DNA of 64,000 nucleotides from a virus: the IMG/VR virus record IMGVR_UViG_3300037483_001670, positions 1 through 64,000 of that record; one strand, 5' to 3'. Both the position numbers and the translations under genes were made by a program. Numbering within the stretch: the stretch's first letter is position 1; each line of letters begins with the position of its first letter. Shown here one piece after another: positions 1-19,764 of this stretch. The notes under the pieces are model-generated. The model was not told the origin of the DNA, made no database searches, and saw only the letters and a program-made list of their open reading frames with translations.

Positions 1-1
1 G

Positions 2-697
2 GCACCCCCCCCGCCGCCGCCCGTGCAGGTGCCCGTTGCGGTGGCGCCGATCGTCATCCCGCCGGCGCAGCCCACGTACGTCTCGCCGACGCCGCCACCG
101 TTGCCCATTACGGCAGCGCCGCCCCCTCCTCCGCCACCCCCGCCGCCCCCTCCTCCGCCGATCATGGTGCCGGCTGCACTGCCTCCGGTTCCGGTGACGG
201 CGTCGCCCGCGGCGCCGATGCCGACGATGGCTCCGCAAGTGACGGCGATCCCGAACGGGCCCACCGTGGTGACGATGCCGAGTGCGCCGCCGCCCGCTCC
301 GCCCGCAACGGCGCCGCCTATGGTGCTGCCGCCGATGCCCACCACCGGGCCGATGGCGCCGAAGGGTCCGGCCCCCGAGGCGCCAGCGATTCCCATGACG
401 CAGTCGTCGATCCCTTTTCCGACGTTCGTGCCGCCGCCAAATGCGCAGGTGACGACGGTGCCGTACGGGCCGACGGTAATGACGTTGCCGGCCGAGACGT
501 ACGACGCGCCGGTGCAGCGGCAGCAGCAGATGGTGCAGGTGCCGAGCTACGTGCCGCAGGTCGCGCCAGCCGCGCCGGCGGGAGGCCAGACCTGGTGGGC
601 GGCGCAGCCGAAATCGACACAGTACGCCATCCTCGGGGGCGGCGCGCTAGCGCTCCTGCTCGGCATTTCACTTCTCACGCGCACGGACGCCGCATAA
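2..697 (+). CDS. Proline-rich membrane-anchored protein, 5' end probably cut by the window edge; putative virion protein
   Basis: Frame is open from the window start. Poly-Pro tracts; C-terminal WWAAQPKSTQYAILGGGALALLLGISLL hydrophobic segment. Confidence 0.8.
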   Translation, partial: APPPPPPVQVPVAVAPIVIPPAQPTYVSPTPPPLPITAAPPPPPPPPPPPPPPIMVPAALPPVPVTASPAAPMPTMAPQVTAIPNGPTVVTMPSAPPPAPPATAPPMVLPPMPTTGPMAPKGPAPEAPAIPMTQSSIPFPTFVPPPNAQVTTVPYGPTVMTLPAETYDAPVQRQQQMVQVPSYVPQVAPAAPAGGQTWWAAQPKSTQYAILGGGALALLLGISLLTRTDAA

Positions 698-712
698 GGG
701 AGACGCAGGGCA

Positions 713-1390
713 ATGTCATACACCACGTACGGACTCGGCGAGGCGCTGCCCGATCTCATCATCCAGTGGAGCGATGGGTACGGGATGCAGTCGGCGATCT
801 TGTCGGCGAAGGGGCCGGAGTGCGGCTACCAAATCGCGACGCAGGTGGCCCTCAATAACCTCGGTTACGGCGCGGGCAAGCCGAACATGAAGGACCCGAC
901 GTGGCTCGATGCGGTTGCGAAGTTTGCCGCGGCGCGCGGGATTGTGCAGCCGGCCGGGCAGCCGCCGACCGATGCGGTATGTGCGCGCATGATGTCGGAC
1001 TGGAAATCCATGGCCGAGCCGACGCCCGCGAACGCGCGCGTGTGGCAGGTGAAGCCCGGTGCCGCGCCGCCGGCGCCAAAGGCGTGCGCGCCAGGCTTCG
1101 ATTGGAACCAGGCCGAGCAGCGGTGCCAGCTGCCGGAGCCGCCGCCTCCCGCGGTGGTACCGGTCGCGATGCCGCCCATTCCGATCACGTCGGTCGCGCA
1201 GCCGACGACGCCCGGGGGGCTTACTCCTGGACCGATGCCGTTCGCGCCGCCGCCCGGTCCGGCGGCTATGCCGGCCATGCCGGACACGGTGAAGTACGCG
1301 ATAATCGGGGGCGGCGCGCTCCTGCTCGTCGGGATCATGCTCGCGTCGCGTCCGAAGAGGAAGCCGCCGGCCGCAGCGCCGGCGGCCTAA
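713..1390 (+). CDS. Membrane-anchored Pro-rich protein with a PG-binding-like N-terminal domain; putative virion protein
   Basis: GGGAGA RBS. MSYTTYGLG start; QVALNNLGYGAG motif; C-terminal TM YAIIGGGALLLVGIML followed by RPKRK. Paralog of 1401..2258. Confidence 0.8.
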   Translation: MSYTTYGLGEALPDLIIQWSDGYGMQSAILSAKGPECGYQIATQVALNNLGYGAGKPNMKDPTWLDAVAKFAAARGIVQPAGQPPTDAVCARMMSDWKSMAEPTPANARVWQVKPGAAPPAPKACAPGFDWNQAEQRCQLPEPPPPAVVPVAMPPIPITSVAQPTTPGGLTPGPMPFAPPPGPAAMPAMPDTVKYAIIGGGALLLVGIMLASRPKRKPPAAAPAA

Positions 1391-1400
1391 GAGGAGACCC

Positions 1401-2258
1401 ATGTCCTATTCGGCCAGCGGAGGTTTCGGCGACATGATCGTGCGCTGGAGCAACAACATTTCCAGCTCGATGTTCATCGCCAAAGGGCCGACGTGCGGAT
1501 CGCAGCGCGCGGCGCAGCGCATGCTGCAAGATCTCGGGTACGGCGCGGGACGCAGCGACATCGAAGACCCGAACTTCGTGTCCGACATGGAGAAGTTTGC
1601 GAACGACCGCAACATCCGGCACACGGTCGGCACTGTGGATCAGGCCATGTGCCACATCCTGAGCCAGGAATGGATGCTGATGGCGCGGCTCGATCCGAAG
1701 GCGGCGCCGTACCTCGTGTACGAGCGCGACCCGGCCAAGCCGAAGCCGGCGCCGATGGTGGTGGACTACGAGGCCGAAAATAGGCCTCCGGTGATCATGC
1801 CGCCGGGCAGTATCATTCCGATCGACCAGTTGCCGCCGGCGTTGCGCCCGCAGAGCTCGACGGCCCCGCCTCCGCCTTTGCCGCCGGCTCCCACGGTGGT
1901 GACGATGCCATCGGCTCCCACTCCGTCGGTCGCGCCGCAGGTTTCCGCGCCAACGCCGTCGCCCGCGGTCGTGCCGCAGGTCGTGACGATGACGACGGTG
2001 CCGCAGGTGTCCCAGCCGCAGGTGACGCCGGTGTATGCCTCGGCTCCGCTCCCCGCGCGCGCGGTGGAGGTGCCGGTCATGCAAGCGATGTCGCCGGCGC
2101 TGGCAGTTCCGGCATGGAAGCGTCCCGCGGTGGTCGCAGGGGGCGCGACGGTGGGCTTGGCTGTTGGCCGTGCGATTGGGGGAGGCAGCGCGGTCGGATC
2201 GATCGTGGGCATGCTCGCGGGCGGCGCGGCGGGTTGGTTTCTAGGGGCACGGGTCTAA
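1401..2258 (+). CDS. Paralog of 713..1390; Pro-rich, C-terminal glycine-zipper hydrophobic segments
   Basis: AGGAG RBS. MSYSASGGFG start; AKGPTCG and QRMLQDLGYGAG align with AKGPECG and QVALNNLGYGAG. Confidence 0.8.
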   Translation: MSYSASGGFGDMIVRWSNNISSSMFIAKGPTCGSQRAAQRMLQDLGYGAGRSDIEDPNFVSDMEKFANDRNIRHTVGTVDQAMCHILSQEWMLMARLDPKAAPYLVYERDPAKPKPAPMVVDYEAENRPPVIMPPGSIIPIDQLPPALRPQSSTAPPPPLPPAPTVVTMPSAPTPSVAPQVSAPTPSPAVVPQVVTMTTVPQVSQPQVTPVYASAPLPARAVEVPVMQAMSPALAVPAWKRPAVVAGGATVGLAVGRAIGGGSAVGSIVGMLAGGAAGWFLGARV

Positions 2259-2269
2259 AGGAGACGCTC

Positions 2270-3370
2270 ATGTCGTACTCGGTGATGGGATCGGCTGGTT
2301 TCGGAGCCTTCACGGGCAACCCGACGATCGGTCGCAACAAGACGGCCAACGCGGCCGTGACCAAGCAGTGGCAGACGTTCCTTGGGATCGGCGCGGACGG
2401 CATCTTCGGTGCCGGCACCGAGACAGCGACAAAACTCTGGCAGACGGCAAACGGGCTCACTCCCGACGGTGTTGTCGGTCCGGCCACCTGGGCGAAAGCG
2501 GACGCGGTGTCGACGGGTGGAACTGCGAGCGGCGGCGGAACGACGATCGTCATTCCGGGTATGGGCCCGGTGACCCTTCCGCCGGGCGTGCAGATTCCAC
2601 CCGGCGCCACGCTTCCTGCGATCCCGGGCATGCCCCCTTTGCCGGGCACCATCCCTCTCCCGGGGGCGTTGCCTCCGGCCGGCGCGGCATCGACCTCTTC
2701 TCCTATTCCACAGGCGTCGGTGCCGCCGCCGGAGCCGTCGTCCTCTCCGAGTTGGTGGGCGAGCCAGCCGAAGAGCACGCAGTACGCCGCGATGGGCGGG
2801 GGCGCGCTCCTTCTCGCTGGCGCGCTCTTTCTCTTGCTCGGCGGCGACGGCAAGAAGCCGGCGAAGGCAACGCCGAACCGACGGCGCCGAGCGCCAGCGC
2901 TGACGGCCGCCGATAAAAATCGCCTGCATGCGTACGGCGGCTCGGCAAGAATCGTTGCGTCGCTTGGTCTGCGCGGCACGAAGACGCGTGCGCTCAACAC
3001 GCTTTATCGAACGCTCACTCGGCGCCGCGCGCCGGTGGCGTTGCGTCGCAAGGTGGCCAGAGAGCTCGAAGGCCGGTCCGAAATGTACCACGCGAACGCT
3101 GCGTGCCATCGTAAGCCGCCGAAGAAGTACCGGTCGAAGGGCGCGACGGCGCGCGCGGACTACGCGGACCCGGCTTGCTACAAGTACCCGATCCGATTTC
3201 GGAAGAAGGGACGCGTGAAGCGCGCGCTCTCGGCGAAGCACATTCGCGCCGCTGCGTCGCGGTTCGGCAAACACAAGCGTCGCTACCCGAAGACGGTCCG
3301 CAAACAGATCGCTGGCCGCATCGCTGCGGCAGAAAGGAAGTACCGCATCGGTCCGTACCGGATGCGCTGA
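2270..3370 (+). CDS. Peptidoglycan-binding domain + Pro-rich linker + TM + basic DUF6582-like C-terminal domain
   Basis: ATG 2270 after AGGAG. ADGIFGAGTETATKLWQTANGLTPDGVVGPATW is a canonical PG_binding_1 motif; TM YAAMGGGALLLAGALFLLLGG; C-terminal YADPACYKYPI...HIRAAASRF resembles DUF6582. Confidence 0.85.
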   Translation: MSYSVMGSAGFGAFTGNPTIGRNKTANAAVTKQWQTFLGIGADGIFGAGTETATKLWQTANGLTPDGVVGPATWAKADAVSTGGTASGGGTTIVIPGMGPVTLPPGVQIPPGATLPAIPGMPPLPGTIPLPGALPPAGAASTSSPIPQASVPPPEPSSSPSWWASQPKSTQYAAMGGGALLLAGALFLLLGGDGKKPAKATPNRRRRAPALTAADKNRLHAYGGSARIVASLGLRGTKTRALNTLYRTLTRRRAPVALRRKVARELEGRSEMYHANAACHRKPPKKYRSKGATARADYADPACYKYPIRFRKKGRVKRALSAKHIRAAASRFGKHKRRYPKTVRKQIAGRIAAAERKYRIGPYRMR

Positions 3371-3373
3371 GGT

Positions 3374-4303
3374 ATGTACACGTCGATCGGTCTCGGTGCG
3401 GCTCCTGCCGCTGCGTGTCGGGTCCCCTCGGATCCGGGCGGCTGGATCACGCCCGCAGGCTTCGCTGCCATGGTGCAGCAAATCTTGGCGTCGGCCGCTC
3501 AGCCGTATTGGAACCTCCCGGTGCCAGCGCCCTACGAGACCGAGGTGCTGAACTGGGTCGTCAACTACGGCTACGTCGACGGCCGCAAAGCGGGCGCTTG
3601 CCAGCTGCAAGTCGCTGGCGACATGTCGATCTACAACGGCAAGGAGTGGCAGGGCTGGTTTCAGTCGGCGTGCCAGATTGCCGGCGCCGGCGACGCGTGC
3701 GGCCGGGTCGCGGCCGAGGCAGCGCAGTTCAACTTACCGTTCGCCACGTGGCTGAAGTCGGCCGCGGCGAATGCGAACGGTGTCGTCCTTGCGTCGCGCC
3801 CCACACCGGGCAGCTGGACCGTGCAGGAGGCGTACTTCGTAGCGCCGTCGATCGACGATGATCCGGTGATGGCGCTGCTCGCCAGCGTTCCGCCTCAGCT
3901 TCAGGCGCCGGCCAAGGCGTACCTCGCGGCGACGAAAGCCGTGCTGATGGCGAAACAGGGCAAGTTCGGCGCAGCGCGCGATCTCTTCGTCGTCTACGCG
4001 CCGAGCCTCGCGAACCTTGGCGTGGCGGTGAACGGCTTCGGTGAGACGTTCACGCTGCCACCGATGCCGCAGGTGCAGATCAGCTACCCGGACGGCAGCG
4101 GCGGAGCGATCACGATCGGCACTGCGAATCCGCCGAACCCGAACGCTCCGCCGCGGGGAGCGCCGCCGGTGAAGAAACCGGAAGAGGCGGGGCTGCCGAG
4201 CGAAAAACTCATGATGTGGACCCAGCTCATTGGCACGGGCCTCGGCATCGTGGTGGGCGGGACAACACTGTACTTCATGCTCCGCAATCGAAGAAAGAAA
4301 TAG
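3374..4303 (+). CDS. Membrane-anchored hypothetical protein; putative virion protein
   Basis: MYTSIGLG start; C-terminal TM LIGTGLGIVVGGTTLYFML followed by RNRRKK. Confidence 0.8.
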   Translation: MYTSIGLGAAPAAACRVPSDPGGWITPAGFAAMVQQILASAAQPYWNLPVPAPYETEVLNWVVNYGYVDGRKAGACQLQVAGDMSIYNGKEWQGWFQSACQIAGAGDACGRVAAEAAQFNLPFATWLKSAAANANGVVLASRPTPGSWTVQEAYFVAPSIDDDPVMALLASVPPQLQAPAKAYLAATKAVLMAKQGKFGAARDLFVVYAPSLANLGVAVNGFGETFTLPPMPQVQISYPDGSGGAITIGTANPPNPNAPPRGAPPVKKPEEAGLPSEKLMMWTQLIGTGLGIVVGGTTLYFMLRNRRKK

Positions 4304-4314
4304 GGAGACTCGTC

Positions 4315-4950
4315 ATGGAAATCGCAAGGCTCGTTCGTCGTACCGGAGGCATGAAGGGCGTTGGCGCGCCGCTTGGCGGCATGGGACGCCGGTCGTTCGA
4401 AGGCTTCGGCGACTTGAACACGCTCGAGCGCCAGGTCTTCGAATACCAGAACGGCATTTGGGCTGTGACCTCGCAGGGCGTGCCGATGATCGAGGGTCTG
4501 ATGGCTCCGTTCTCGACGACGCCAACGGCCTTCGCGTCGCCAAGCGCCAATGGGGACATCGTCATCGTGTGGTACGCCGGCTACCTGATCCCGCCGCCGG
4601 GCTCCGAGCCGGGGCCGTACAACACGTTGAACGAGCTCCTCATGAAGCACGACAAGCCGGGGCGCGTGCATCTCATCGAGACAGACATCATCCATCCGTT
4701 CCCGAAGAAGCGCTCGGTCATCTTGACCGACAACGCGGCCACGGTGGCCGAGCTCGCGAGCACGTCGAGCTCGACGACGCTGCCGGCGTTTGCGGTCGGC
4801 CAGGGAGCCAACCCGAACGTGATCGCTGCGGCGCGCATGATGGGCCCGCCGCGTACCGCGCTCGCGGGCATGTGGGGTGTTGGTGCGGTGGTGGTGGGCG
4901 GCGTGGTGCTGCTTTCGCTGCTCGGCGGACGCAAGTCGCGCCGGTCGTAA
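4315..4950 (+). CDS. Membrane-anchored hypothetical protein, paralog of 4993..5943
   Basis: GGGAGA RBS before ATG 4315. IVWYAGYLIPPPGSEPGPY shared with the next gene; C-terminal TM followed by RKSRRS. Confidence 0.8.
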   Translation: MEIARLVRRTGGMKGVGAPLGGMGRRSFEGFGDLNTLERQVFEYQNGIWAVTSQGVPMIEGLMAPFSTTPTAFASPSANGDIVIVWYAGYLIPPPGSEPGPYNTLNELLMKHDKPGRVHLIETDIIHPFPKKRSVILTDNAATVAELASTSSSTTLPAFAVGQGANPNVIAAARMMGPPRTALAGMWGVGAVVVGGVVLLSLLGGRKSRRS

Positions 4951-4992
4951 ACCGGGCCAAAAAGGCGTACGATTCAGACTGAGGAGGCTTTC

Positions 4993-5943
4993 ATGGTTTC
5001 GCCGATCCAAATGACCGAGATCTCCCACTTCAGGGCGCCCTACAAGGACGCCTACTTCGGAGCGGCGCTCGGCAAGCCCGTGTTCGCGCCCGACTACGCA
5101 CAGAGCGCGCAAGGCTACGGCGTCTACGAAGGCGTCGGCGACGAGACCGCGGCCGAGCTGACGCGGAACCTCCAAGGCCAGTGGGCCAAGGGGGCGGGTG
5201 GTCTCCTTGCGATGTGGGGCCAGAATCCGTGGGGCCAGCAGGGCGGAGGTCGAGGGCGAGCACGGCAGCGGCGAGGCGCGCCGGCGGTGAGCGGCTACGG
5301 TCGAGGAGGCGCCGACGGTTTCGGCGCGATTCCGACTCCGACGGGCAGTACGCCCATCGCGTCGCTCGATCCGTACTTCTCGGTGAAGGGCGGTATCACG
5401 TTCGCGACGCCGGCCACGGCCACGAACCTCGACACGACCCTCCAGAATTTCGGTGCGACCGATCCGGCGTTCGTCGTGCCTACCGCGGACGGGCGGACGG
5501 CGACGATCGTTTTCTACCACGGGATGACGGCACCTCCCGCGGGCGCGGAACCGGGGCCGTACCAGCCATTCGCGCAGGTGTACACGGCCGCGCACGACCA
5601 AGTTCTGAAAAACTCGAACGCTCAGCTGCCGATCGTGCGCTACCAGGGCATGACGCTCGTCGACAAGCAGCTCGCGACGCCGGTTCCGGGCCGACGCACG
5701 GTCATCTTCACGGTCGACCCGGTCGTCATCGCGACGCTGGCGCAATCGGGCGGGGACTACTTCCTCACCGAGGACGAGGTCGATTCGCTCTTGCTCGCCG
5801 CGTCGCGCGGGCAGCTGTCGAACGTGCCGAAGGCGGTCCGCACGGCGAGCTTTTTCTCGTCGCCATTCGGCGTCGCGACGGCGCTTGCTGCTGGTGCGGG
5901 CGTTCTCTACTTCGCATTCGGCAAGAAGCGCCGTCGGGCGTAA
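4993..5943 (+). CDS. Membrane-anchored hypothetical protein
   Basis: GAGGAGG RBS. IVFYHGMTAPPAGAEPGPY motif; C-terminal TM FGVATALAAGAGVLYFAFG followed by KKRRRA. Confidence 0.8.
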   Translation: MVSPIQMTEISHFRAPYKDAYFGAALGKPVFAPDYAQSAQGYGVYEGVGDETAAELTRNLQGQWAKGAGGLLAMWGQNPWGQQGGGRGRARQRRGAPAVSGYGRGGADGFGAIPTPTGSTPIASLDPYFSVKGGITFATPATATNLDTTLQNFGATDPAFVVPTADGRTATIVFYHGMTAPPAGAEPGPYQPFAQVYTAAHDQVLKNSNAQLPIVRYQGMTLVDKQLATPVPGRRTVIFTVDPVVIATLAQSGGDYFLTEDEVDSLLLAASRGQLSNVPKAVRTASFFSSPFGVATALAAGAGVLYFAFGKKRRRA

Positions 5944-5962
5944 CGGAGGACCGTTGAAGGGC

Positions 5963-6616
5963 ATGCCGTTCATCCACGGGATCGAGGGACTCGTCGCCGG
6001 CCTTTTCGGCGACGCGGTCGGCAAGATCGGCCAGCACCAGACGCATCCGCTGATGCGCTCCGGGCTCATGTGGGCGGGACAGGTCGTCAACAACCTCGTC
6101 GCCCGCTACGGCTCCATTTCGATGAGCGGCGTGCGGTGCGGCCTACGCCCGCGCGGTGCGGACGGTCAGTACGCGCAGTGTCCGGATCCGGCGATCGGCG
6201 TTTGCGGGTTCTGCCAGACGGTCACGTGCCTGAACCACGCCTTCGTCGATCGCAACGCGAACATCATTTGTCCGATGTGCATCGCGCGCGCGCAGAAGGC
6301 GCTCAACATCGACCCGAACCAGCAGCACAGCGCCCCTCCGCCGCCTCCTCCGCATGAGCATGCGGGACCGGCTGCCGAAGACGTGCAGGAGGTCAGGCGG
6401 AAGCGTCTTGCTGCGTTGAAGGCGCTCGGTCTCAAGGATCCGCTCGAGGAAGGAGAGCTCGAGCAGGCGTTCCGTAGCCTCATGAAGGCGTCGCATCCGG
6501 ATCGATCGTCGGACGAGAAGGATCGGCAGCGCCGCGAGAAGAAGTGCGCGGGGTATACGGCTGCGTACCACTACGTCAAAGAGCACCCCAAGGTTCGAGC
6601 GAGGAGCGCGGCATGA
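5963..6616 (+). CDS. Zinc-finger (B-box-like) plus C-terminal DnaJ-type J-domain protein
   Basis: CGFC..CLNH..CPMC cluster; ALGL...AFRSLMKASHPDR carries the HPD motif and J-domain helix pattern. Confidence 0.85.
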   Translation: MPFIHGIEGLVAGLFGDAVGKIGQHQTHPLMRSGLMWAGQVVNNLVARYGSISMSGVRCGLRPRGADGQYAQCPDPAIGVCGFCQTVTCLNHAFVDRNANIICPMCIARAQKALNIDPNQQHSAPPPPPPHEHAGPAAEDVQEVRRKRLAALKALGLKDPLEEGELEQAFRSLMKASHPDRSSDEKDRQRREKKCAGYTAAYHYVKEHPKVRARSAA

Positions 6617-6948
6617 TTTCGTACCACAACCCGTTTCCGGTGGCCTTTCCCTACGAGGGGCACGTGCCCGTTCCTGGCTGGGGCTTCACGCCGAACCTTG
6701 CCGGTCCGGCGATGCTCGCTGTCGGAGCCAGCGATCCCACCGGCTACGAGTGGGTGCCGGGGATGCTGATTCTCGCGGCGTTCGCGGCCGGCGGTTACTA
6801 CGGTGGCAAGGAGCTCGCGCGGCGTACGGGCCACAAGAAGGAGAAAGCCCTCTGGGGCGTCGTCGGCGCGGCCGCGCTCCCGACGTTGGTTGCCGGGTTC
6901 ACGGTCTACGCGGTGAACCAATTCGGCAGCGGCTTCAAGGCCATCTGA
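6613..6948 (+). CDS. Small two-TM membrane protein
   Basis: Overlaps the upstream stop (ATGA); two hydrophobic segments; N-terminal VPGWGFTPNLAGP. Confidence 0.7.
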   Translation: MISYHNPFPVAFPYEGHVPVPGWGFTPNLAGPAMLAVGASDPTGYEWVPGMLILAAFAAGGYYGGKELARRTGHKKEKALWGVVGAAALPTLVAGFTVYAVNQFGSGFKAI

Positions 6949-6957
6949 GGAGTGACC

Positions 6958-7359
6958 ATGAGCAAGAGAGCCATCGCGGTCATCGGCGACGTGAACTACG
7001 TCGAGCACGGCGGCATGGTCGTGTTCGACAACGGCGACCTCGAGCTCGTCCAGCCTGGCGAGAACGAGGAGGACCCGGTCGTCATCTACCGGTTCGCGGC
7101 CGATCAGGTGGCCGAGCCGAGCCGAGAATGGTTCGGCGACGACTTGAAAAATGTAGCGAAGTACGTCGACGTCGCCCTGGTCGATCTCGCGGCGGCGCTG
7201 AACAGCGAAGACGTTCGGGTGCGCGCGTCGGCATACTACGATCTCGTCGGCTATTTCGGTGGGCAAAACTTTGACGAGTCGCCGTTGACGCTGACGACGA
7301 AGGAAGCGGAGCGCCGCTACCGGAGCGTCGATCGGTCCCTCGCCAAGCGAAAGCGTTGA
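6958..7359 (+). CDS. Hypothetical acidic phage-type protein
   Basis: GAGGAG RBS; continuous ORF in the operon. Confidence 0.7.
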   Translation: MSKRAIAVIGDVNYVEHGGMVVFDNGDLELVQPGENEEDPVVIYRFAADQVAEPSREWFGDDLKNVAKYVDVALVDLAAALNSEDVRVRASAYYDLVGYFGGQNFDESPLTLTTKEAERRYRSVDRSLAKRKR

Positions 7360-8051
7360 ACCTGGTGAACCTCCTCGACGAAATCACCTTCTGGTCGCGG
7401 CAGCTCTCGGAGCACGCGCTGTTCCTGCATCTCGGGCTCGACCATCCCGGGATGAAGGCGCAGGCGTTCGCCCTGCACCGCCAGTGGGAAGCGTTTCGCG
7501 CAGAGCTCGGGCAGTTGACGGCGAACGAGGGGCCTGTGGCGCGGGATCGCGCCATCGTGCTCGCGATGGATCTGCGCGCGCTGAAGCTCGAGGTCTTCAA
7601 CACCCAGAAGACCGGCACGTGGCTCGGATGGCTCTTCCCGACGTTCGTCGACCACATGCGGCGCGAGCTCGACTACTTCATCGGCAAGATCACGGGCAAC
7701 CTCACCGACATGAACCAAGAGGCTTGCGTCTGGATGCGTTTCATGGCCGAGCACGCGTCTTTCGCGGCCCACCTCCTCGACCCGGAGGAAGTGCCGCTGA
7801 TCAAGCAGGCGGCGCGGCTCACGCACGACTTTCTGCGGATCGAGGATGGGTGCGGCAAGGTCACGTTGCCGTCGCTCCTCGAGCTCGGAAGGCGGTCGGG
7901 GCGCGAGCTCGACGAGTATTTTCAGCGGTCCGGCATTGGCACTGCGAAGGTGCGGTCGGTCATCCATCCGGTGCTCGCCGAGCACGTCGTCCGTGAGGGG
8001 ACGCGGTTCGTGCAGACGCTCGACCGGATGATGCCGAGGACGGTGGGCTGA
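7356..8051 (+). CDS. DUF2935-domain protein (two repeats)
   Basis: FWSRQLSEHALFL and WMRFMAEHASFAAHLLDPEE motifs; HVVREGTRF C-terminus. Confidence 0.8.
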   Translation: MNLVNLLDEITFWSRQLSEHALFLHLGLDHPGMKAQAFALHRQWEAFRAELGQLTANEGPVARDRAIVLAMDLRALKLEVFNTQKTGTWLGWLFPTFVDHMRRELDYFIGKITGNLTDMNQEACVWMRFMAEHASFAAHLLDPEEVPLIKQAARLTHDFLRIEDGCGKVTLPSLLELGRRSGRELDEYFQRSGIGTAKVRSVIHPVLAEHVVREGTRFVQTLDRMMPRTVG

Positions 8052-9793
8052 TGAGCTACGCAGCGTTCGGGCTCGACATCCAGGCGAACTTCGTCGCCGC
8101 CGCGGCTGAGGCGAAGACGCAGTCTCGCAGCGTGGCCGTTGACCGTGGCGTGCCGGCCGTGGTCTTCGACGCGTTCGATGACATCGCGGTGCGGGGGGCG
8201 GACCCTCAGACGGTGCTGCGGACGCGAGGGATCGATACCGCCCGCAGCCTGCTCTCGCAAAACGCGGCGCAGTTTTCGAAGACGACCGGCGTGCCGGCAG
8301 CCGCCATCGACGCGCTCCTGGAGGGCCTCCAAAGCGGTGACATCAAGAAGACCGCGCTCGACTCGGCGGCCATCATAGGAGGCGCCCTTGGGACAGCCGC
8401 GTGCGGGCCAGCGTGCGGAATGGTCGTGTCGATGGTCGCGACAGGGCTCGTGCAGGCGGTCGACAACGTTGCCCACGTGTGGATTCTCGGCGACTGGGAT
8501 CGGGACCGGCGCGCCGAAAATGAGCGCATGTACCGCCAAAACATCCAGGCGATCCAGGAGACGAGCAAGATCGTCAAGCAGTACAACAAGCTCGAGCTCG
8601 GCATCGTCTACGCTGCCGAGCTCGGGCCGGCGCGCACGTACAACGATCTGTTGGGGCTGAAGGTCACCATTCAGGTCGAGCAAGTGGTGGCCGCTGTGAT
8701 GCAATGGTGGGTGTTCGTCAACCTGCCGCAGTCGGCGCCCCCGTGGAGTAAGGATCTCACGCCGTACAAGGGACTTCTCTACGATGGCGGTTACACGCCC
8801 GACATGGCGAAGCGGGCCGACGCGGCCAACAAAGTGGCGTCGCAGGAGAACAGCATCGTCTATGCCACGCTCGGCAACATTTCGCGTCAATCGTTCGCTG
8901 ATCAGAACGGTGGATTGCGGGTCGAGGACACGGTGCTGCTCGAGGTCCGCAAGGCGTTCGTTGATGCGGTCAAAAAGGCGGTGGACGCGAAGTACCCTGG
9001 GCTCTGGGACCGGAACAAGACCGAGTCGATGTTCTACGAGCGTCTCGAGAAGTGGGTGGTATCGGAAAATTCGGGCCAAGGCTTCCCGGGTGGCGGCACG
9101 AACCCGAGCCTCGTGCCCGCCGCGGAAAACCGAGCCAACCTGTTTTGCAGCTGGAGCGATGCGGACTTAAATCAGATCGCCGGAGCTACCGATGCCAAGG
9201 GTGGCGAGTACCGGTGCGATCGGATTTATGGCGACGCTGCCCGGCCGGCCAACCTCGCCGATTGGCAGTGGTCAACGCCCGGGTACATCCCTCCTGCATT
9301 TGCCGACAACCGCTACGGAACGCCCTGCTGGCCGAACTTCTGCGGACCGTCGAATCCGAGAGATCCGTGCTTTGGCGGCCCGGCGCTGCTCCGTGCGTGG
9401 CGCTGCCATCTGCCGCGCCACTACGACTACATCGCGACGAACGCTGGCGACCTGGCGCAGCGCTGGCTCAAGGTGGCGACGCGCGACATTTCGATCCTCA
9501 CGATTTCCGATCAGATGAGGAAGGCCGCGCAGGATGCTACGAAAGCGGCGAGCTTGGCAGCCGCCACGGCGCTGATGCAGCAGAAGCCGGCGACGACGGT
9601 CGCTGCGGTTGCGACGGTCGCTGCCGAGAAGACGATTTCGGCGCAGGTGTCGGCATGGGGGAAGATGCGCGACGCGTTCACCGGCAAGAGCCTTTCGCCG
9701 ACGCAGAAAGCGCTCGCGATCAGCGGCGTCGGACTACTCGGCGCTGCGGCAGTGTTCCTCTTCGCCCCCGCTCCCGCCGCCAAGAGCGCTTGA
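8051..9793 (+). CDS. Large membrane-anchored protein, 580 aa; putative virion protein
   Basis: MSYAAFGLD start; Cys/Trp-rich central part; C-terminal TM ALAISGVGLLGAAAVFLFAP. Confidence 0.8.
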   Translation: MSYAAFGLDIQANFVAAAAEAKTQSRSVAVDRGVPAVVFDAFDDIAVRGADPQTVLRTRGIDTARSLLSQNAAQFSKTTGVPAAAIDALLEGLQSGDIKKTALDSAAIIGGALGTAACGPACGMVVSMVATGLVQAVDNVAHVWILGDWDRDRRAENERMYRQNIQAIQETSKIVKQYNKLELGIVYAAELGPARTYNDLLGLKVTIQVEQVVAAVMQWWVFVNLPQSAPPWSKDLTPYKGLLYDGGYTPDMAKRADAANKVASQENSIVYATLGNISRQSFADQNGGLRVEDTVLLEVRKAFVDAVKKAVDAKYPGLWDRNKTESMFYERLEKWVVSENSGQGFPGGGTNPSLVPAAENRANLFCSWSDADLNQIAGATDAKGGEYRCDRIYGDAARPANLADWQWSTPGYIPPAFADNRYGTPCWPNFCGPSNPRDPCFGGPALLRAWRCHLPRHYDYIATNAGDLAQRWLKVATRDISILTISDQMRKAAQDATKAASLAAATALMQQKPATTVAAVATVAAEKTISAQVSAWGKMRDAFTGKSLSPTQKALAISGVGLLGAAAVFLFAPAPAAKSA

Positions 9794-10863: not shown

Positions 10864-11166
10864 ATGGACATTATCGGTACAGTGATCGACGTAGCGCAAG
10901 CGAAGTACGACGAGCCGGTCGAGAAGATGAGGGTGGTCGTGGAATCCGCGATCCGAGCTGCCAAAGAGCCGGCAGAGGACGCCAGCGGCGTGCTCACGTC
11001 GGTGGCGATTCTCTACTCGAACGGCGAGCCGTACGTGAAGGCCAGCGGAGGCTCGCCCGACGAGGCGATCAAGGCGCTCGGTAAAAAGGTGCTCGCGCAG
11101 GGGGATGCCTCGGTGGCGTCGCTGAAAGAGAAGTTGGAGATCCTGCGAGGGCTGGTCGGCGGGTGA
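10864..11166 (+). CDS. Hypothetical protein
   Basis: AGGA RBS; overlaps the start of the glycosyltransferase operon. Confidence 0.7.
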   Translation: MDIIGTVIDVAQAKYDEPVEKMRVVVESAIRAAKEPAEDASGVLTSVAILYSNGEPYVKASGGSPDEAIKALGKKVLAQGDASVASLKEKLEILRGLVGG

Positions 11167-13514
11167 GCGGCAGCGGCTCGATCATGGACTACCTGGCCCA
11201 CGGCCCCGCGGAGGTCGCGGAGGGCCAGGTGGCGGCGTTCAAGCCGGGCGAGCCGGCCGAGCACGCCGAGGGCTACAAATACATGGGGCCATGGGAGACG
11301 TTCGCCGACGGCTTTTCCGAGCACTCCCGCCGGTCCGCGCGCGCCCTCTTTGCGACCGGCGTGCCGGTTCATCTTCGAAGTCTGAACCAGGACAACCTGA
11401 AGTCGGACACGCCCGAGATGCAGCCGATCGAACAGCTGCTGCGGCCGATGCTCCGCGCTTCGATTCGGCAGTATGTGGCCGAGATCTACCAGATCGTTCC
11501 GCACGACTCGCTCCTCCAATTTCTGACGACGCACCAACACTACGGTGAGAGCGAGATGCGGGTATTGAACGCGCACCGCGTCCTCTACACCGTGTGGGAG
11601 CGCGACCGAATCACGGCCGCCGCCCGGGTGGCATTGAACCGCGTCGGTCAGGCCTGGGTCGCGGCGCAGGCGACCGCGGAGATGCTCGTCGCGAACGGAG
11701 TCGATCCGAGGAAGGTTCGCGTCGTGCCGTGTCCGTTCTTCCCGGACGATCCGCATCTGGCGCTGGCTGGCCGGAAGCGGCGCAAGGGGGTTCCGCGCTT
11801 TTACCACATCGGCAAATGGGAACCGCGGAAGGCGCAGACGCAGATCATCGGCACGTTCTTGCGGGCGTTTCGTCCGGGCGAAGCGGAACTCTACTTGAAG
11901 GTCTCTCCGTTTGCCGCGAACGTCGAGCTCGAGAACTACCCGAAGACCCCCGCGATCTCGGTACATGAGTGGCTGAGGGACGAGCGGGTTCGTCAGATGG
12001 GCTGGTCGCTCGCCGACTTGAACCGCTGCATATTTCTCATCCAGAAGCGGATGCCGACAGAGGATCTCGTACGCCTCCACGCCGCTGGCGACGTGTACGT
12101 GTCGATGTCGCGCGGCGAAGGCTTCGACATGCCGGCGCAGGACGCGAAGCTTGCCGGCAACCTCATGCTCTACACGCCGAGCGGCGGCACGCAGGCCTTT
12201 GCCGGTCCGCTGGACGTGCGGATTGAGGCGACCGGGCGAGTGCCGTGTCACCCGTTCTACAAGTGGAACGAAGACGCGGGCTACATCGACTACGATCTCG
12301 ACGAAGCCGTCGTGAAGATGCGTTACGCGGCGACGCTCGTGTCGCAGCCGCAAACGAGCTCGCAGGTGGGCATGACCTGGTGCTCCGCGGCCGTCGTAGG
12401 CGCAGCGATGCGGGCCAACATGGAGGAGCTTCGGGCCGACGGGCGCAAGGTTGCGATTGCTGTCGGGGAAGAACTGCTTGCTCGGGAGGCGCAGAGCGCG
12501 CCGGCGCCACCACTCGAGTCGATCGAGCAAGGTCGGATCGTCGAAGCCGGTCCGCGCATCTTTTTTGCGACCCATGGCGCCGCGGTCGATGCCCCATATG
12601 GCGGCGCTCGGGTGAATGCGCTCCTGGCTGAGCTACTTTACCGTCACCCGCTTATCGGAGCGGTCGAGAACGTCGGGCACGACATGATCCCCGAGAAGCC
12701 GACGGACATCGCGATGGTGGAGGTCCCGACGGGAGCGCCCTACGTTCGCCGGCTCAACGCGAAAAAGGTCGTGTTGCTCCGGTACGGCGATCAGGGGCAC
12801 GGGGCCTGCGCGTACGAGCTTTTCGAGCGCGGGGTGGACGCGGTCGTGCTCGTGCCGAGCGAGTACGCTTACCGCACGCTGAGCTACCGGATCCCGTACC
12901 GGGTGGTCTGGAATGCGTTCGAGCCGCCGGACATGGTCCGAGAGGGCGGAAGCCTTGGCAAGAAGGTGCTCTACACCGGTGCCTACCGCTTCGCGAAGGA
13001 CACGCCGCTCGCTGCCCGGGTCGCTACGGAGGCGCCGGATCTGCAATTCGTGTGGCGCCGGTCCACGGACATCGGTGAGCCGCTCGCGCCGATCGCGACG
13101 CCGCCGAACGTGGAGCTGCTCGATCCGACCGCGGACCGCGATGAGCTCTGGCGGGACATCGGGTGCGTGCTCGTGACGAGCCGGTATGAGTCATTCTGTC
13201 TCATCGCCTACGAGGCGGCGTGCCGTGGGATACCGGTCGTGTTTCATGAGGAACTCGCGTCAATTCGAGAATGGGCGGGCACGGTGGACGTTGCGTCGGA
13301 CACGCTGATCCATGGCGCGCAGTCGGCCGGCGACGGGCTACGTGCCTGTCGAACTCCGGTTGAGTTCGCGAAAGCTTGTCGGGCCGCGATTGGCCAGGTG
13401 GGTGATGGGGATCGGTTTCTCCCTTGGCAGCGGGTGGCCGATCGGACGCACGCGAGGTCCCTCGCGCAGCTCGACGCGTTCGTGCGCGAATACCTGACGG
13501 AGGGATTTCTCTGA
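11163..13514 (+). CDS. Two-domain GT-B (GT4-like) glycosyltransferase, 783 aa
   Basis: FYHIGKWEPRK; DVYVSMSRGEGFDMPAQDA; second domain with LVTSRYESFCLIAYEAACRGIPVV. Confidence 0.85.
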   Translation: MSGSGSIMDYLAHGPAEVAEGQVAAFKPGEPAEHAEGYKYMGPWETFADGFSEHSRRSARALFATGVPVHLRSLNQDNLKSDTPEMQPIEQLLRPMLRASIRQYVAEIYQIVPHDSLLQFLTTHQHYGESEMRVLNAHRVLYTVWERDRITAAARVALNRVGQAWVAAQATAEMLVANGVDPRKVRVVPCPFFPDDPHLALAGRKRRKGVPRFYHIGKWEPRKAQTQIIGTFLRAFRPGEAELYLKVSPFAANVELENYPKTPAISVHEWLRDERVRQMGWSLADLNRCIFLIQKRMPTEDLVRLHAAGDVYVSMSRGEGFDMPAQDAKLAGNLMLYTPSGGTQAFAGPLDVRIEATGRVPCHPFYKWNEDAGYIDYDLDEAVVKMRYAATLVSQPQTSSQVGMTWCSAAVVGAAMRANMEELRADGRKVAIAVGEELLAREAQSAPAPPLESIEQGRIVEAGPRIFFATHGAAVDAPYGGARVNALLAELLYRHPLIGAVENVGHDMIPEKPTDIAMVEVPTGAPYVRRLNAKKVVLLRYGDQGHGACAYELFERGVDAVVLVPSEYAYRTLSYRIPYRVVWNAFEPPDMVREGGSLGKKVLYTGAYRFAKDTPLAARVATEAPDLQFVWRRSTDIGEPLAPIATPPNVELLDPTADRDELWRDIGCVLVTSRYESFCLIAYEAACRGIPVVFHEELASIREWAGTVDVASDTLIHGAQSAGDGLRACRTPVEFAKACRAAIGQVGDGDRFLPWQRVADRTHARSLAQLDAFVREYLTEGFL

Positions 13515-14404
13515 TGAGCGGGCTCTCGGTGCTCTTTGCCAGTGAGTCGTTCGACGGGACGCTCTCCATGGGGGGCTCGAAGGCGAACGGCCTTCTTTTG
13601 GCGGCTCTGCGTGGCAATCCTCTGGTGGGTGAGGTTATGACGACCAAGCCGGACATGCCGAAGACGGGGCATGACATTTTGATCGTCGAGGCGCCAACGG
13701 GCACCCCCTTCATCGAGGCTTGCGCGCCGGCATTCACGTTTGTGCTGCGCCATGGCGACACGCCGCTCGGCAATTGTGCCTACGAGCGGTTCGATCGGCC
13801 GGATACGGCGATGCTGGTGCCGTCGAACTGGGCGACGCGGTCGTTGCCTCGGGTCGCCCATTTCGTCCAGTACATGGCGCTCGAGCGTCCGCCGGGCGAG
13901 GTTCCACCGATGGGCAAAAAGGTGCTCCACGCGCGAGCCTACGACTTCATGAAGGATACGCGGATGGCGATCGAGGTGGCGCGCGAGGCACCAGAGGTCG
14001 AGTTCGTTTTCCGGTTGACGCCCGGCGCGTTCGCTGGCGATCTGCCACCGAACGTGACCGTCGAGCTGGCGACCCACGGGCCGGAGCTCTGGGAGGACAT
14101 CGGCGCGGTGCTACTCACGTCGCGCGCCGAGACGTTTTCGATGATTGCGTACGAAGCGGTGTGTCGTGGCTTGCGGGTCGTTGCGCATGCTTCGCTCGGC
14201 GTTTTGCGCGAATGGGCGGATCCGTATCCGTGCACGTACCTGGCGGATACCGCGCAGGGGCTGGCGGAGTCGTGTCGGATGGCGCTCGAGGTCAATGAGC
14301 CGGCGCGGCTCGCGGCCATCGATTGCGCGCGCGATGTGCATCTCCGCTCTTTCGAGCAGATGAACTATTGGCTCGGGCGCGCCCACATGGAGATTCGTCG
14401 ATGA
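13514..14404 (+). CDS. GT4-like glycosyltransferase
   Basis: LLTSRAETFSMIAYEAVCRGLRVV; paralogous to the C-terminal domain of the upstream gene. Confidence 0.8.
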   Translation: MSGLSVLFASESFDGTLSMGGSKANGLLLAALRGNPLVGEVMTTKPDMPKTGHDILIVEAPTGTPFIEACAPAFTFVLRHGDTPLGNCAYERFDRPDTAMLVPSNWATRSLPRVAHFVQYMALERPPGEVPPMGKKVLHARAYDFMKDTRMAIEVAREAPEVEFVFRLTPGAFAGDLPPNVTVELATHGPELWEDIGAVLLTSRAETFSMIAYEAVCRGLRVVAHASLGVLREWADPYPCTYLADTAQGLAESCRMALEVNEPARLAAIDCARDVHLRSFEQMNYWLGRAHMEIRR

Positions 14405-15519
14405 TTCCGCTCTTCAAGGTATCGATGTCGGCCGAGGCGAAGGAGCTCGTCGGCGAGGTGCTCGACTCGGGCTACATCGGCCAGGGCGCGAAGGTCGAGC
14501 AATTCGAGAAGCAGTTCGCTGAGCTCGCGGAAGCGCCCCACGAGGTACTGACCGTCAACTCGTGCACCTCGGCGATCGATCTCGCGCTCCATCTCATCGG
14601 GGTCGGCCCGGGCGACGAAGTGATCACCACGCCGATGACGTGCACGGCGTCGAACAGCGCCGTCGTGACCCGCGGATCCACACCCGTCTGGGCGGATGTG
14701 GATCCGACGACGGGCCTCATCGATCCGGCTTCGGTGCACCGGCAGCTGACGCGCAAGACGAAGGCGATCATCGCCGTCGATTGGGCGGGCGAGCCTTGTG
14801 ACTACGCTGAGCTGAAGTCGTATGGCGTACCGGTCATCGAAGACGCGGCACACGCTCTCTTGGCCACGATTGGCGGGCAGCCCATTGCCCGCGTGGGAGG
14901 GGACTATGTTGCGTGGTCGTTCCAGGCCATCAAACACCTGACGACGGGCGACGGCGGTGCGCTCCTCGCTCCGGCGCACCAGATAGAGCGGGCGCGTCTG
15001 CTTCGTTGGTACGGGCTCGATCGTAAGAGCTCGGCGAACTTCCGGTGCGAGCAAAACATCCGCGAAGTTGGCTACAAGTACCACATGAACGACATTGCGG
15101 CGGCGATTGGCCTCGCGAACCTTCCAACTGCGAAGGCCGTCGTCGATCGGCATCGGCACAACGCCGCCATCTACGCCGAAGCGTTCGAAGGGTTCGGCGG
15201 ACGCGGTCGCGCGCCGCGTGCCTCGAAGCAGAGCTCGTGGTGGCTCTACACGCTCCTCGTCGACAGCCCCCAGGTCTTCGTGTCGTTCATGAAGTCCGAA
15301 GGCATCGAAGCGTCGCCGGTGCACGCCCGCAATGACAAGCACACGGCGTTTTTGCGCGTCGCGGAGCGACGGGGCGAGACGCTGAGGGGCGTCGATCTTT
15401 TCGCGGGTCACGAGGTGGCGATTCCGGTGGGCTGGTGGATCCGGGACCACGACGTCCAGCACATCATCGCGACGGTGCGGCGTTGGTACGAGCAGCGCGC
15501 GCGGATTCGGTTCGCCTGA
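14401..15519 (+). CDS. DegT/DnrJ/EryC1/StrS PLP-dependent sugar aminotransferase
   Basis: VNSCTSAIDLAL, GPGDEVITTPMT, VIEDAAHA, SFQAIKHLTTGDGG, GYKYHMNDIAAAIG. Confidence 0.95.
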   Translation: MIPLFKVSMSAEAKELVGEVLDSGYIGQGAKVEQFEKQFAELAEAPHEVLTVNSCTSAIDLALHLIGVGPGDEVITTPMTCTASNSAVVTRGSTPVWADVDPTTGLIDPASVHRQLTRKTKAIIAVDWAGEPCDYAELKSYGVPVIEDAAHALLATIGGQPIARVGGDYVAWSFQAIKHLTTGDGGALLAPAHQIERARLLRWYGLDRKSSANFRCEQNIREVGYKYHMNDIAAAIGLANLPTAKAVVDRHRHNAAIYAEAFEGFGGRGRAPRASKQSSWWLYTLLVDSPQVFVSFMKSEGIEASPVHARNDKHTAFLRVAERRGETLRGVDLFAGHEVAIPVGWWIRDHDVQHIIATVRRWYEQRARIRFA

Positions 15520-15959
15520 TGTGGGGTCTCGTGCAAGTGGTGACGTTCGAGCAGGTCGAGCACGTGCGACAGATCCGCAACACGTGCCGTGAGTTCATGA
15601 CGCGCGACCGGAGCGAGATCTCGGAGCAGCGCCAGCTTCAGTGGTGGGTGAACCGGACCGAGTCGTTCCAGCTCTTCCTCTTCTGCTTCGGGACGCGCGA
15701 GATCGGCTACGGTATGATCCGGCAGGACCCGGCGCCCGGCCGGCAGTGGCTGTCGGGAGGGCTGGCGCCCGGGTGGAGAGGGCTAGGGCTCGGCGACGTG
15801 CTCTTTCGGCTTTTGGCGCGCATCGCGGAGCCGCCGTGCCATCTCGAGGTGCTCGTGTCGAATGAGCGCGCCCGCAAGATCTACGAGCGCATCGGGTTTA
15901 ACGAGGTGGGTCGAGAAGGAGAGGTTGTGACCATGGAGCTGAAGGAGCGAGTGCAATGA
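15519..15959 (+). CDS. GNAT acetyltransferase, likely acting on an amino sugar
   Basis: WRGLGLGDVLF acetyl-CoA loop; LEVLVSNERARKIYERIGF. Confidence 0.85.
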   Translation: MWGLVQVVTFEQVEHVRQIRNTCREFMTRDRSEISEQRQLQWWVNRTESFQLFLFCFGTREIGYGMIRQDPAPGRQWLSGGLAPGWRGLGLGDVLFRLLARIAEPPCHLEVLVSNERARKIYERIGFNEVGREGEVVTMELKERVQ

Positions 15960-16762: not shown

Positions 16763-16766
16763 CACC

Positions 16767-17507: not shown

Positions 17508-17515
17508 CGGACCAA

Positions 17516-18198: not shown

Positions 18199-18401
18199 AC
18201 GATCGGATGCTCACCGAGATGGAGGCAGCGCGCGTGCGCCGGTTGGTCCTCGACAGAGGTGAGCCCGAGGTGGTGAAGATGCTCATGGTGTCCCGCTCCA
18301 CGTTACCTCGTCTGATTGCTCGCCTCCCGATGCAGCGCGGTACCGTGGCGCTCGTGAGACAGAGGTTGAAAGAGAGGGCAAATGGCAGAGTGGACCGATA
18401 A
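18195..18401 (+). CDS. Small HTH-like protein
   Basis: GTG overlapping the upstream stop; EVVKMLMVSRSTLPRL HTH-like segment. Confidence 0.5.
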   Translation: MNDRMLTEMEAARVRRLVLDRGEPEVVKMLMVSRSTLPRLIARLPMQRGTVALVRQRLKERANGRVDR

Positions 18402-19755: not shown

Positions 19756-19764
19756 AGTTGGGAC

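Follow-up and report, generated by a model that had tools for sequence, protein, structure and literature searches.

A shared N-terminal peptide on tail-anchored proteins of a large, apparently tailless bacterial virus

A cluster of membrane proteins with a common start

We analysed the first 64 kb (hereafter, the window) of IMG/VR record IMGVR_UViG_3300037483_001670, a single viral contig of 182,423 nt with 64.7% G+C from sediment metagenomes. The first 9.8 kb of the window encode a series of proteins that typically carry a C-terminal transmembrane helix (TM) and in several cases begin with Met-Ser-Tyr (MSY). A first-pass annotation had grouped these proteins by an N-terminal MSY..G[LF]G motif and proposed that the motif is a maturation-cleavage or assembly tag for proteins of a virion membrane. 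The family is real and larger than described: the cluster extends upstream, and gene 1 is the tail of a 400-residue MSY open reading frame (ORF). G[LF]G is not its most constant element; that is Tyr-x-x-hydrophobic-Gly at the extreme N-terminus. The tag core is ^M(S/T)?-Y-x-x-hydrophobic-G, usually followed by Gly-hydrophobic-Gly.

The two contig ends (window 1-130 and genome 182293-182423) overlap by 126 identical nt and then diverge in a poly-proline-coding repeat. Because the ends share these 126 nt, the assembly is a circle of about 182.3 kb or is terminally redundant. The collection entry lists the contig as linear and 73% complete. A codon-usage model called 270 genes, and tag counts are over 269 of them. 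The tagged genes lie in a plus-strand operon of ~17 kb that starts at ~174.8 kb, spans the contig junction and ends at 9.8 kb. The module comprises the following genes, in window coordinates unless marked as genome:

Upstream tagged starts, genome: 178608, MSYYMLNG (gene 178581); 179615, MSYTSFGEE; 179898, MSYAVMGARRGLG; 180834, MSYAGIE.
Gene 1, genome 181788 across the junction to window 697 (window 2..697 is the 3' part), plus strand: 400 residues, starting MSYSIVGGRRGLDG; family-A (PG_binding_1-like) N-terminal domain, ~250-residue Pro-rich linker and C-terminal TM (WWAAQPKSTQYAILGGGAL...).
Gene 2, 713..1390, plus strand: 225 residues; tag MSYTTYG-LG; family-A domain with two conserved Cys; Pro-rich linker, C-terminal TM at 196-212 and basic tail.
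Gene 3, 1401..2258, plus strand: 285 residues; tag MSYSASG-GFG; family-A domain, Pro/Thr/Val-rich linker (PTVVTMPSAP) and Gly-rich hydrophobic C-terminal segment.
Gene 4, 2270..3370, plus strand: 366 residues, starting MSYSVMGSAGFG; tag MSYSVMG-SAGFG; PG_binding_1 domain (Pfam E 3.5e-10), Pro-rich linker, TM at 174-190, then a very basic C-terminal domain of ~175 residues ending ...RIGPYRMR.
Gene 5, 3374..4303, plus strand: 309 residues; tag variant MYTSIG-LG; C-terminal TM; tail RNRRKK; orthologues in relatives start MYVAVGA.
Gene 6, 4351..4950, plus strand: 199 residues from 4351; G-M-G and EGFGD near the start; C-terminal TM; paralogue of gene 7.
Gene 7, 4993..5943, plus strand: 316 residues; N-terminal extension of ~108 residues (…TEISHFRAPYK…) ending DGFGA, then a conserved domain (GAEPGPY), C-terminal TM and tail KKRRRA.
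J-domain protein, 5954..6616, plus strand: 220 residues; N-terminal amphipathic segment, zinc-finger-like region with seven Cys, C-terminal J domain.
Small tail-anchored protein, 6613..6948, plus strand: 111 residues, starting MISYHNPFP...VPGWGFTPNLAGP.
Acidic soluble protein, 6952..7359, plus strand: 135 residues; no tag, no TM, no assigned function.
DUF2935 protein, 7356..8051, plus strand: 231 residues; Pfam E 8.2e-29; no tag, no TM.
Gene 12, 8051..9793, plus strand: 580 residues; tag MSYAAFG; hydrophobic stretch at ~106-126; C-terminal TM at 555-571.
Tagged gene outside the cluster, genome 152095, minus strand: MSY start.

The starts quoted in the first-pass annotation (MSYTTYGLG at 713, MSYSASGGFG at 1401, MSYSVMGSAGFG at 2270, MYTSIGLG at 3374 and MSYAAFGLD at 8051) are all present in the sequence. 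So are the internal motifs EGFGD (ORF at 4216/4315/4351, whose gene 6 start is ambiguous among these three positions) and DGFGA (4993), and the modules said to be shuffled between proteins: WWAxQPKSTQYA-GGGAL in genes 1 and 4, PTVVTMPSAP in genes 1 and 3, and G(S/A)EPGPY in 4351 and 4993.

Much of the module lacks informative database matches. Genes 3374, 4351/4993 and 8051 belong to no recognisable family in Pfam, PHROGs or the ESM Atlas, the last returning only unnamed viral clusters with scores <0.9 for 8051 and 4993. Gene 7 (4993) has 10 homologue clusters in metagenomes. A PHROGs search with ten module proteins gave peptidoglycan-binding/endolysin matches to 2270 only, and the DUF6582 match of 2270 is weak (E 0.058). 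Megablast of window 1-10 kb against phages gave no match, a related-locus search in viral contigs with gene 8051 and with family A found none, and a homologous-protein search with 8051 returned only 8051 itself. A literature search, which was not exhaustive, found no published description of the lineage or the tag.

The tag is strictly N-terminal and associated with tail anchors

MSY opens 10 of the 269 genes, against 0.35 expected from composition. Four of these genes are in the window (713, 1401, 2270 and 8051), five just upstream (178608, 179615, 179898, 180834 and 181788) and one at 152095 on the minus strand. Because Ser2 is written with five different codons (TCA, TCC, TCG, TCT and AGC), selection on the MSY start acts at the protein level, not the mRNA level.

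We scored a protein as tail-anchored when a Kyte-Doolittle scan found a single hydrophobic TM no more than about 45 residues from the C-terminus. Tail anchors were found in 713, 1401, 3374, 4351, 4993, 6613, 181788, 180834, 179898, 179615, 178581 and 152095. The single C-terminal TM with a basic tail noted at first pass is indeed typical: eight of the 10 MSY proteins are strictly tail-anchored, and the remaining two also have a TM (Fisher 2e-6), 8051 with a C-terminal TM plus weaker internal stretches and 2270 with a TM followed by its 175-residue basic domain. Within their first 40 residues, 12 of 37 tail-anchored proteins have G[LFM]G, compared with 10 of 232 others (2e-6), and tail-anchored starts contain 14 such sites compared with 2.2 +/- 1.4 in shuffles.

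An alignment of 31 MSY proteins, taken from this virus and five of its relatives, shows no variation at positions 1-3, a preference for Ala, Tyr, Ser or Thr at position 4, and Gly at position 7 in 22 sequences. Variants that begin with MY (MYTSIG, MYVAVG and MYAGLG) keep the Tyr-to-Gly spacing unchanged. The tag consists of 7-12 small, aromatic and Gly residues without a hydrophobic core. The tagged N-termini lack the n-, h- and c-regions of Sec, Tat or lipoprotein signals, and a hydropathy scan found no hydrophobic window in the first 40 residues of any cluster protein, in agreement with the earlier remark that Sec-type signals are missing. In an AlphaFold2 (AF2) model of 713 residues 1-125 (pLDDT, the predicted local distance difference test, 81.5), tag residues 1-11 are disordered and lie ahead of a folded domain.

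All-against-all BLAST defines family A as the homologous N-terminal domain of 181788, 713, 1401 and part of 180834. The N-termini of 2270, 3374, 8051, 179615, 179898, 178581 and 152095 are unrelated to family A. With seven or more tagged proteins lacking such N-terminal homology, paralogy accounts for only part of the shared start.

The tag is conserved in related viruses

We counted the strict motif ^M[ST]?YxxΦG over 1209 proteins from this genome, four of five syntenic loci, 22 of 26 viral loci linked to the capsid-like protein described below (major capsid protein, MCP) and two complete relatives. Not counted were L016, a partial locus nearly identical to L015, together with duplicates and any loci already represented by the whole genomes. 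The strict motif occurs 36 times, in 33 tail-anchored proteins and three others (p = 4.5e-18). When residues 2-13 were shuffled, the mean was 1.4 occurrences and the maximum 6. Across the 26 MCP-linked loci, SY is the commonest dipeptide after Met (33 of 539 proteins), and among tail-anchored proteins both Tyr at positions 2-4 (1e-9) and G[LFMIV]G in the first 40 residues (8e-11) are enriched.

The first-pass proposal hinged on conservation in homologues, which we observe both in orthologues and on unrelated tail-anchored proteins of relatives. The two complete relatives, G001 (143.7 kb) and G002 (136 kb), both have terminal repeats and encode nine (seven tail-anchored) and eight (six tail-anchored) tagged genes, respectively. 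Orthologues of 8051, 2270/180834, 178581 and 6613 retain the tag. Those of 8051 are 520-547 residues long and start MSYAGLG, VSYAGLG or VSYALGA; 450-residue peptidoglycan-binding orthologues start MSYAMRG or MSYAMHG; and those of 6613 start MSYWMVPD, MSYVNTPD or MSYVALPN. The RIGPYRMR ending of gene 4 (2270) is also kept. Retention of the tag extends to viruses in which the capsid-like protein is only 33-70% identical, and the tagged genes come after the jelly-roll gene in every relative.

The DUF2935 gene (7356-8051) has no counterpart at the syntenic loci of relatives; this genome alone has it in the module, probably through an insertion. An IS605 OrfB/TnpB (Cas12f-like) gene (L017:1191-2294, minus strand) is inserted between the tagged membrane-protein genes of one relative.

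A jelly-roll capsid-like gene precedes the tagged genes

Two further genes lie at the head of the operon:

Capsid-like protein, genome 174808-175572, directly upstream of the tagged genes: 255 residues; 87 homologue clusters.
Conserved protein of ~300 residues, genome 176877-177785 (L006:12877-13782): 302 residues in this virus; always between the capsid-like genes, whose products have 255 and 364 residues, and the first tagged gene.

An AF2 model of the 255-residue protein (pLDDT 82, predicted TM-score (pTM) 0.82) is an all-beta sandwich with a jelly-roll fold. Its VIA-align matches are the SPV1 MCP (Z 7.9, root-mean-square deviation 3.4, 134 aligned residues) and P23-77 VP17 (Z 6.9), followed by HHIV-2 (Z 6.2) and HCIV-1 (Z 5.7), and its top Foldseek matches are viral capsids at E >= 4e-3. 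The contigs that carry it are 60-171 kb long. The model thus points to a probable capsid protein akin to those of internal-membrane viruses. The first-pass annotation had suggested looking for a double jelly roll; none was found, and the fold is a single jelly roll with moderate Z.

Tailed-phage genes, reported as unrecognisable at first pass, are likewise missing from our searches. HK97 capsid, TerL, Terminase_6N and portal profiles (PF05065, PF03354, PF03237 and PF04860) had no match at E <= 0.1, within the limited sensitivity of hidden Markov model (HMM) searches. No head, tail or portal family is among the top 25 of 63 and of 43 PHROG families matched by the two genome halves; those listed concern replication, nucleotide metabolism, lysis and glycosylation. 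Of two PHROG 'terminase large subunit' matches, phrog_2666 falls on a HerA-like P-loop protein and phrog_19299 was not placed on a gene.

That P-loop protein is a HerA/FtsK-like ATPase of 609 residues (genome 79396-81222, L001:15396-17222) with a DUF87 match above cut-off and a resemblance to defence-system HerA in PDB. A packaging ATPase was another hallmark named at first pass, and this is the sole FtsK/HerA-like candidate. It has no counterpart in five large relatives and was rejected as a hallmark packaging enzyme; it is probably an accessory or defence-related gene, not a packaging motor.

The virus is apparently a large, tailless, jelly-roll-type virus whose host would be a bacterium with peptidoglycan. 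We infer a lipid membrane inside the particle only from the many tail-anchored proteins encoded beside the capsid-like gene. The ~300-residue protein (176877), with G-[TG]-LGA close to the N-terminus and ...R(M/V)RPR as a conserved C-terminal ending, is a candidate scaffold or tag receptor.

Peptidoglycan-binding proteins on proline-rich stalks

PG_binding_1 (PF01471, gathering score 23 bits) is matched above cut-off by 2270 (40.3 bits) and 180834 (58 bits). The family-A copies of this virus (181788, 713 and 1401) have no Pfam match, and when family A was compared by hhalign with the PG_binding_1 domains of this virus the probability was 2%. Two family-A orthologues pass PG_binding_1 over the same region (L018:14837, 25.6 bits; L021:15541, 24.5 bits), and the family-A HMM matches these Pfam-positive orthologues at 1e-16 to 3e-7. 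We read family A as peptidoglycan-binding because its HMM finds orthologues that pass PG_binding_1 over the same region. After the tag, the AF2 model of 713 has a beta-hairpin and a three-helix core. Its best and sole notable Foldseek match is the peptidoglycan-binding region of phiKZ gp144 (prob 0.75, E 0.34), a protein with an N-terminal peptidoglycan-binding domain.

Genes 1-4, 178581 and 180834 would thus encode six C-terminally anchored proteins that bind peptidoglycan and have Pro-rich stalks. A single 450-residue protein of relatives unites the tag, A domain, PG_binding_1 domain, TM and basic domain, and in this virus the family has been expanded and reshuffled. The same genome encodes an endolysin-type PG_binding_1 paralogue and an SLT lytic transglycosylase (22813-23523, minus strand; Pfam E 4e-21), which shares the architecture of the tagged family in having a C-terminal TM but no signal peptide.

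Comparison of paralogues also points to a gene fission at Gly-Phe-Gly. The N-terminus of 2270 (…GSAGFGAF..PTIG) is homologous to an internal GFSGFLGLGAFGLGAFG..PTIG junction of 180834, and the homology of 4351 to 4993 begins at (E/D)GFG, from 4993 residue 109 onward, past the 108-residue extension. Because homology in both pairs begins there, Gly-Phe-Gly marks domain boundaries, which is compatible with a processing site and also with a plain linker. The internal GFSGFLGLGAFGLGAFG run (gene at genome 180834-181775, L006:16834-17772; residues ~143-162) lies between the two peptidoglycan-binding domains of 180834 and might serve as a linker, as a site of cutting or as a segment that acts on membranes.

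A conserved Cys-His-Asp enzyme, a J-domain protein and a glycosylation cluster

Two further loci lie outside the module:

Cys-His-Asp enzyme, genome 157059-157721, minus strand: 220 residues.
Glycosylation cluster, window 11163-21170, directly after the module here and in relatives: PseC-like aminotransferase, GNAT and several GT2/GT4 glycosyltransferases (GTs).

A cysteine protease was the third hallmark suggested at first pass, and a Cys-His-Asp enzyme is encoded and present in all five large relatives checked. D146-C147-D148, H179 and D196 are invariant in seven sequences and in SSIP-1 gp34, a structural protein with weak similarity to the enzyme (phmmer 4.7e-6). The Cys-His-Asp order is that of a transglutaminase-like or papain-like triad, although PF01841 (Transglut_core) has no match in the genome and a PDB profile search with the enzyme gave nothing significant. 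No Erv1/ALR thiol oxidase was found. Complex prediction of enzyme residues 40-219 (7-row alignment) with the first 45 residues of family A scored 0.01 (mark 0.32), which weighs neither way. An initial enzyme candidate, L005:17538-18431, was wrong; tblastn against phages gave no match.

The J protein (5954) has an invariant HPD and seven conserved Cys and is syntenic in all five related loci. Its Pfam DnaJ match (E 4e-4) is below cut-off, and orthologues have precomputed PF00226 matches. DnaK prevents aggregation of Escherichia coli tail-anchored proteins during membrane targeting (PMC6794478), and because they need DnaK in this way a viral J protein would have a plausible job.

The cluster of GT, DegT and GNAT genes downstream of the module is conserved in relatives and may glycosylate the Pro/Thr-rich stalks. 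The PseC-like aminotransferase (4e-59) is translationally coupled to the GNAT, which matches RimI weakly (3.7e-8, 33.6 bits against a cut-off of 86.4) and matches PseH too.

A possible sorting or assembly label

We consider the chances about even that the tag is a sorting or assembly label for the inner-membrane and entry proteins of a particle. That this label is also trimmed at Gly-x-Gly is a more doubtful addition. In this account we infer the virion location, the membrane, the sorting role, the cleavage and the DnaK link.

Under such a scheme, window 1-9.8 kb would be the middle of a ~17-kb late, particle-building operon encoding mostly tail-anchored membrane proteins. These proteins would insert post-translationally, and their N-terminal domains would remain cytoplasmic, on the membrane face that in the virion would be turned towards the capsid. 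The short basic tails and the 175-residue basic domain of gene 4 would face the DNA. The shared N-terminal peptide would serve as a recognition tag that recruits unrelated proteins into the particle, and the Cys-His-Asp enzyme would trim it at Gly-x-Gly. The J-domain protein would probably recruit host DnaK, keeping tail-anchored proteins insertion-competent. At entry, the peptidoglycan-binding stalk proteins and the SLT enzyme would grip or act on the wall, as PRD1 P7 does.

Recognition of the N-terminal peptide as such is favoured because the tag is fixed at residues 1-7, like the capsid targeting sequence (CTS) of T4. Of the two roles offered at first pass, cleavage or assembly, the confinement of M(S)Y-x-x-hydrophobic-G to the extreme N-terminus agrees better with a tag for recognition or sorting than with a bare protease site.

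Several observations weigh against a label for an internal virion membrane. By the positive-inside rule, basic residues after the TM favour an N-terminus that is outside, and proteins beyond the cytoplasm are the typical carriers of peptidoglycan-binding domains and of a conserved pair of Cys. The stalks, with as many as ~250 Pro-rich residues, are far longer than the space separating an inner membrane from the shell of a capsid. Structural matches to jelly-roll capsids have moderate scores (Z <8, Foldseek E >= 4e-3), no conserved FtsK/HerA-type packaging ATPase was found (a divergent one is possible), and SSIP-1, the sole cultured distant relative, lacks MSY starts. As for the trimming step, 8051, the 180834 N-terminus and 179615 have no Gly-x-Gly site; because 8051 and some other tagged proteins lack it, universal cutting is impossible.

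The first three of these observations could also be explained by proteins of the host envelope. The basic tail would then be cytoplasmic, the tag would be an unconventional export or topology signal and the Pro-rich stalk would span the periplasm as in TonB/TolA, so that the proteins tether, remodel or lyse the wall in the manner of spanin-, exclusion- or egress-type proteins. Basic residues follow almost every TM, and the PG_binding_1 domains, the two conserved Cys of family A, the long Pro-rich linkers and the presence of both an endolysin-type PG_binding_1 paralogue and the SLT enzyme in the genome are all consistent with this arrangement. Yet the first 40 residues of the tagged proteins contain no hydrophobic core, and no bacterial export signal is known to lack one. 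The tag is also present on 8051, 3374, 179615 and 152095, none of which has a wall-binding domain. The position of these genes after the jelly-roll gene in every relative and the structural proteins encoded by the distant counterpart region of SSIP-1 argue further for a particle, and we regard an envelope role as rather unlikely.

Another explanation takes the tag as a protease recognition or cutting (maturation) signal only, with incorporation decided by the C-terminal anchors and no sorting. Many viral cysteine proteases, including adenain, African swine fever virus (ASFV) pS273R and poxvirus I7, cut Gly-Gly-type sites. The enrichment of Gly-hydrophobic-Gly in the first 40 residues of tail-anchored proteins, the onset of paralogue homology at Gly-Phe-Gly and the conserved Cys-His-Asp enzyme fit such a signal. 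A cutting site, however, needs no fixed place at residues 1-7, yet Met-Ser-Tyr is invariant at the start. Moreover, Gly-x-Gly is no commoner in tail-anchored proteins with the Tyr tag (26 of 59) than in those without (47 of 117), and several tagged proteins, those named above among them, lack it. A purely proteolytic signal is accordingly an improbable account of the tag.

The tag might instead direct covalent N-terminal modification by the downstream cluster, which would either acetylate Ser once Met is removed or glycosylate Ser or Tyr. Its strictly N-terminal position, a Ser2 that permits Met removal and the conserved GT, DegT and GNAT genes directly downstream, with the weak GNAT-RimI match, are compatible with this idea. 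The GNAT is far under the RimI cut-off, though, and its match to PseH and coupling to the PseC-like aminotransferase are the usual sugar-pathway pairing; tags of the MY type, in addition, would retain Met. We therefore hold modification to be very unlikely. Finally, four MSY genes are paralogues with homologous N-terminal domains, but the idea that the tag has no function and reflects gene duplication or a translation-initiation preference is scarcely credible given at least seven tagged proteins unrelated at the N-terminus, Ser2 codons from both the TCN and AGC families, retention of the tag across viruses with diverged capsid-like proteins and its tight linkage to tail-anchored proteins.

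Comparison with known systems

SSIP-1 is, like the virus proposed here, a tailless phage with an internal membrane, and among its late gene products are many small proteins that have a C-terminal TM. Its gp34 has the D-C-D, H and D residues of the enzyme, and G[LM]G occurs near the start of gp36, gp37, gp52 and gp53. Its genome is 44 kb compared with 182 kb here, however, none of its proteins has an MSY start or YxxΦG, and besides gp34 only an endolysin-like protein pair reaches significance.

The closest functional precedent is the T4 CTS, an N-terminal leader that guides internal proteins into the particle under assembly and is then removed at a consensus site by the gp21 prohead protease. 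Both are short leaders at the extreme N-terminus common to unrelated proteins. T4, in contrast, is tailed and of HK97 type, the proteins with its CTS are soluble ones that attach to the scaffolding core, and the MKTYQEFIAE-type sequence and serine protease are unrelated to those described here, where the carriers are tail-anchored and cutting is only a prediction.

Adenain cuts adenovirus precursors at (M/I/L)XGX-G or (M/I/L)XGG-X. Adenovirus shares with this virus a jelly-roll capsid, Gly-x-Gly-type sites near the ends of particle proteins and, if the Cys-His-Asp enzyme is packaged, a virion cysteine protease. The enzyme here nonetheless has the D-C-D...H...D arrangement of SSIP-1 gp34, not that of adenain; tags have M, I or L at the matching P4 in 14 of 31 cases and Gly at position 9 in seven of 31; and no adenoviral counterpart is known for the Tyr element at the extreme N-terminus.

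PRD1 P7 and other membrane-associated lytic or entry proteins of tectiviruses act on the wall during entry. Wall-acting domains anchored in an internal membrane would be a shared feature, represented here by the tail-anchored SLT enzyme and six tail-anchored peptidoglycan-binding proteins. There is no sequence relationship, though, PRD1 proteins are not known to share an N-terminal tag, and Pro-rich stalks and six peptidoglycan-binding paralogues are not known from tectiviruses.

Bacterial DnaK-dependent tail-anchored proteins (E. coli DjlC, Flk and model tail-anchored membrane proteins; PMC6794478) resemble the tagged proteins in having a single C-terminal TM, no signal peptide and post-translational insertion. 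Unlike the viral proteins, those of cells are not known to carry a common N-terminal tag, and the role suggested for the viral J protein comes only from the position of its gene.

Implications for the lineage

Six observations are new here: the Y-x-x-hydrophobic-G core and its statistics across relatives, protein-level selection, the peptidoglycan-binding identity of family A, gene fission at Gly-Phe-Gly, the conserved J-domain protein and the non-conservation of the HerA-like ATPase. We suggest, tentatively, that a group of tailless bacterial viruses of 116-182 kb has a trafficking code of its own for membrane proteins, in which a capsid or scaffold protein would read the label and load dozens of tail-anchored proteins into an internal membrane, the J protein and host DnaK would assist and a virion Cys-His-Asp protease would remove the label at Gly-x-Gly. 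The genomes of this lineage are three to four times the size of SSIP-1 (44 kb), the largest characterised tailless membrane phage compared here. Six peptidoglycan-binding proteins on long proline-rich stalks beside a viral glycosylation cluster point to an unusual entry apparatus.

Even for PRD1 and PM2 it has yet to be explained how membrane-containing phages select the proteins of that membrane, and a short, portable N-terminal label whose enrichment on unrelated tail-anchored proteins is statistically clear makes the question directly accessible. It would also pick out the membrane proteins of the particle in a virus lineage not yet cultured. If true, the trafficking code would be a full sorting-plus-maturation system without a described bacterial or phage counterpart.

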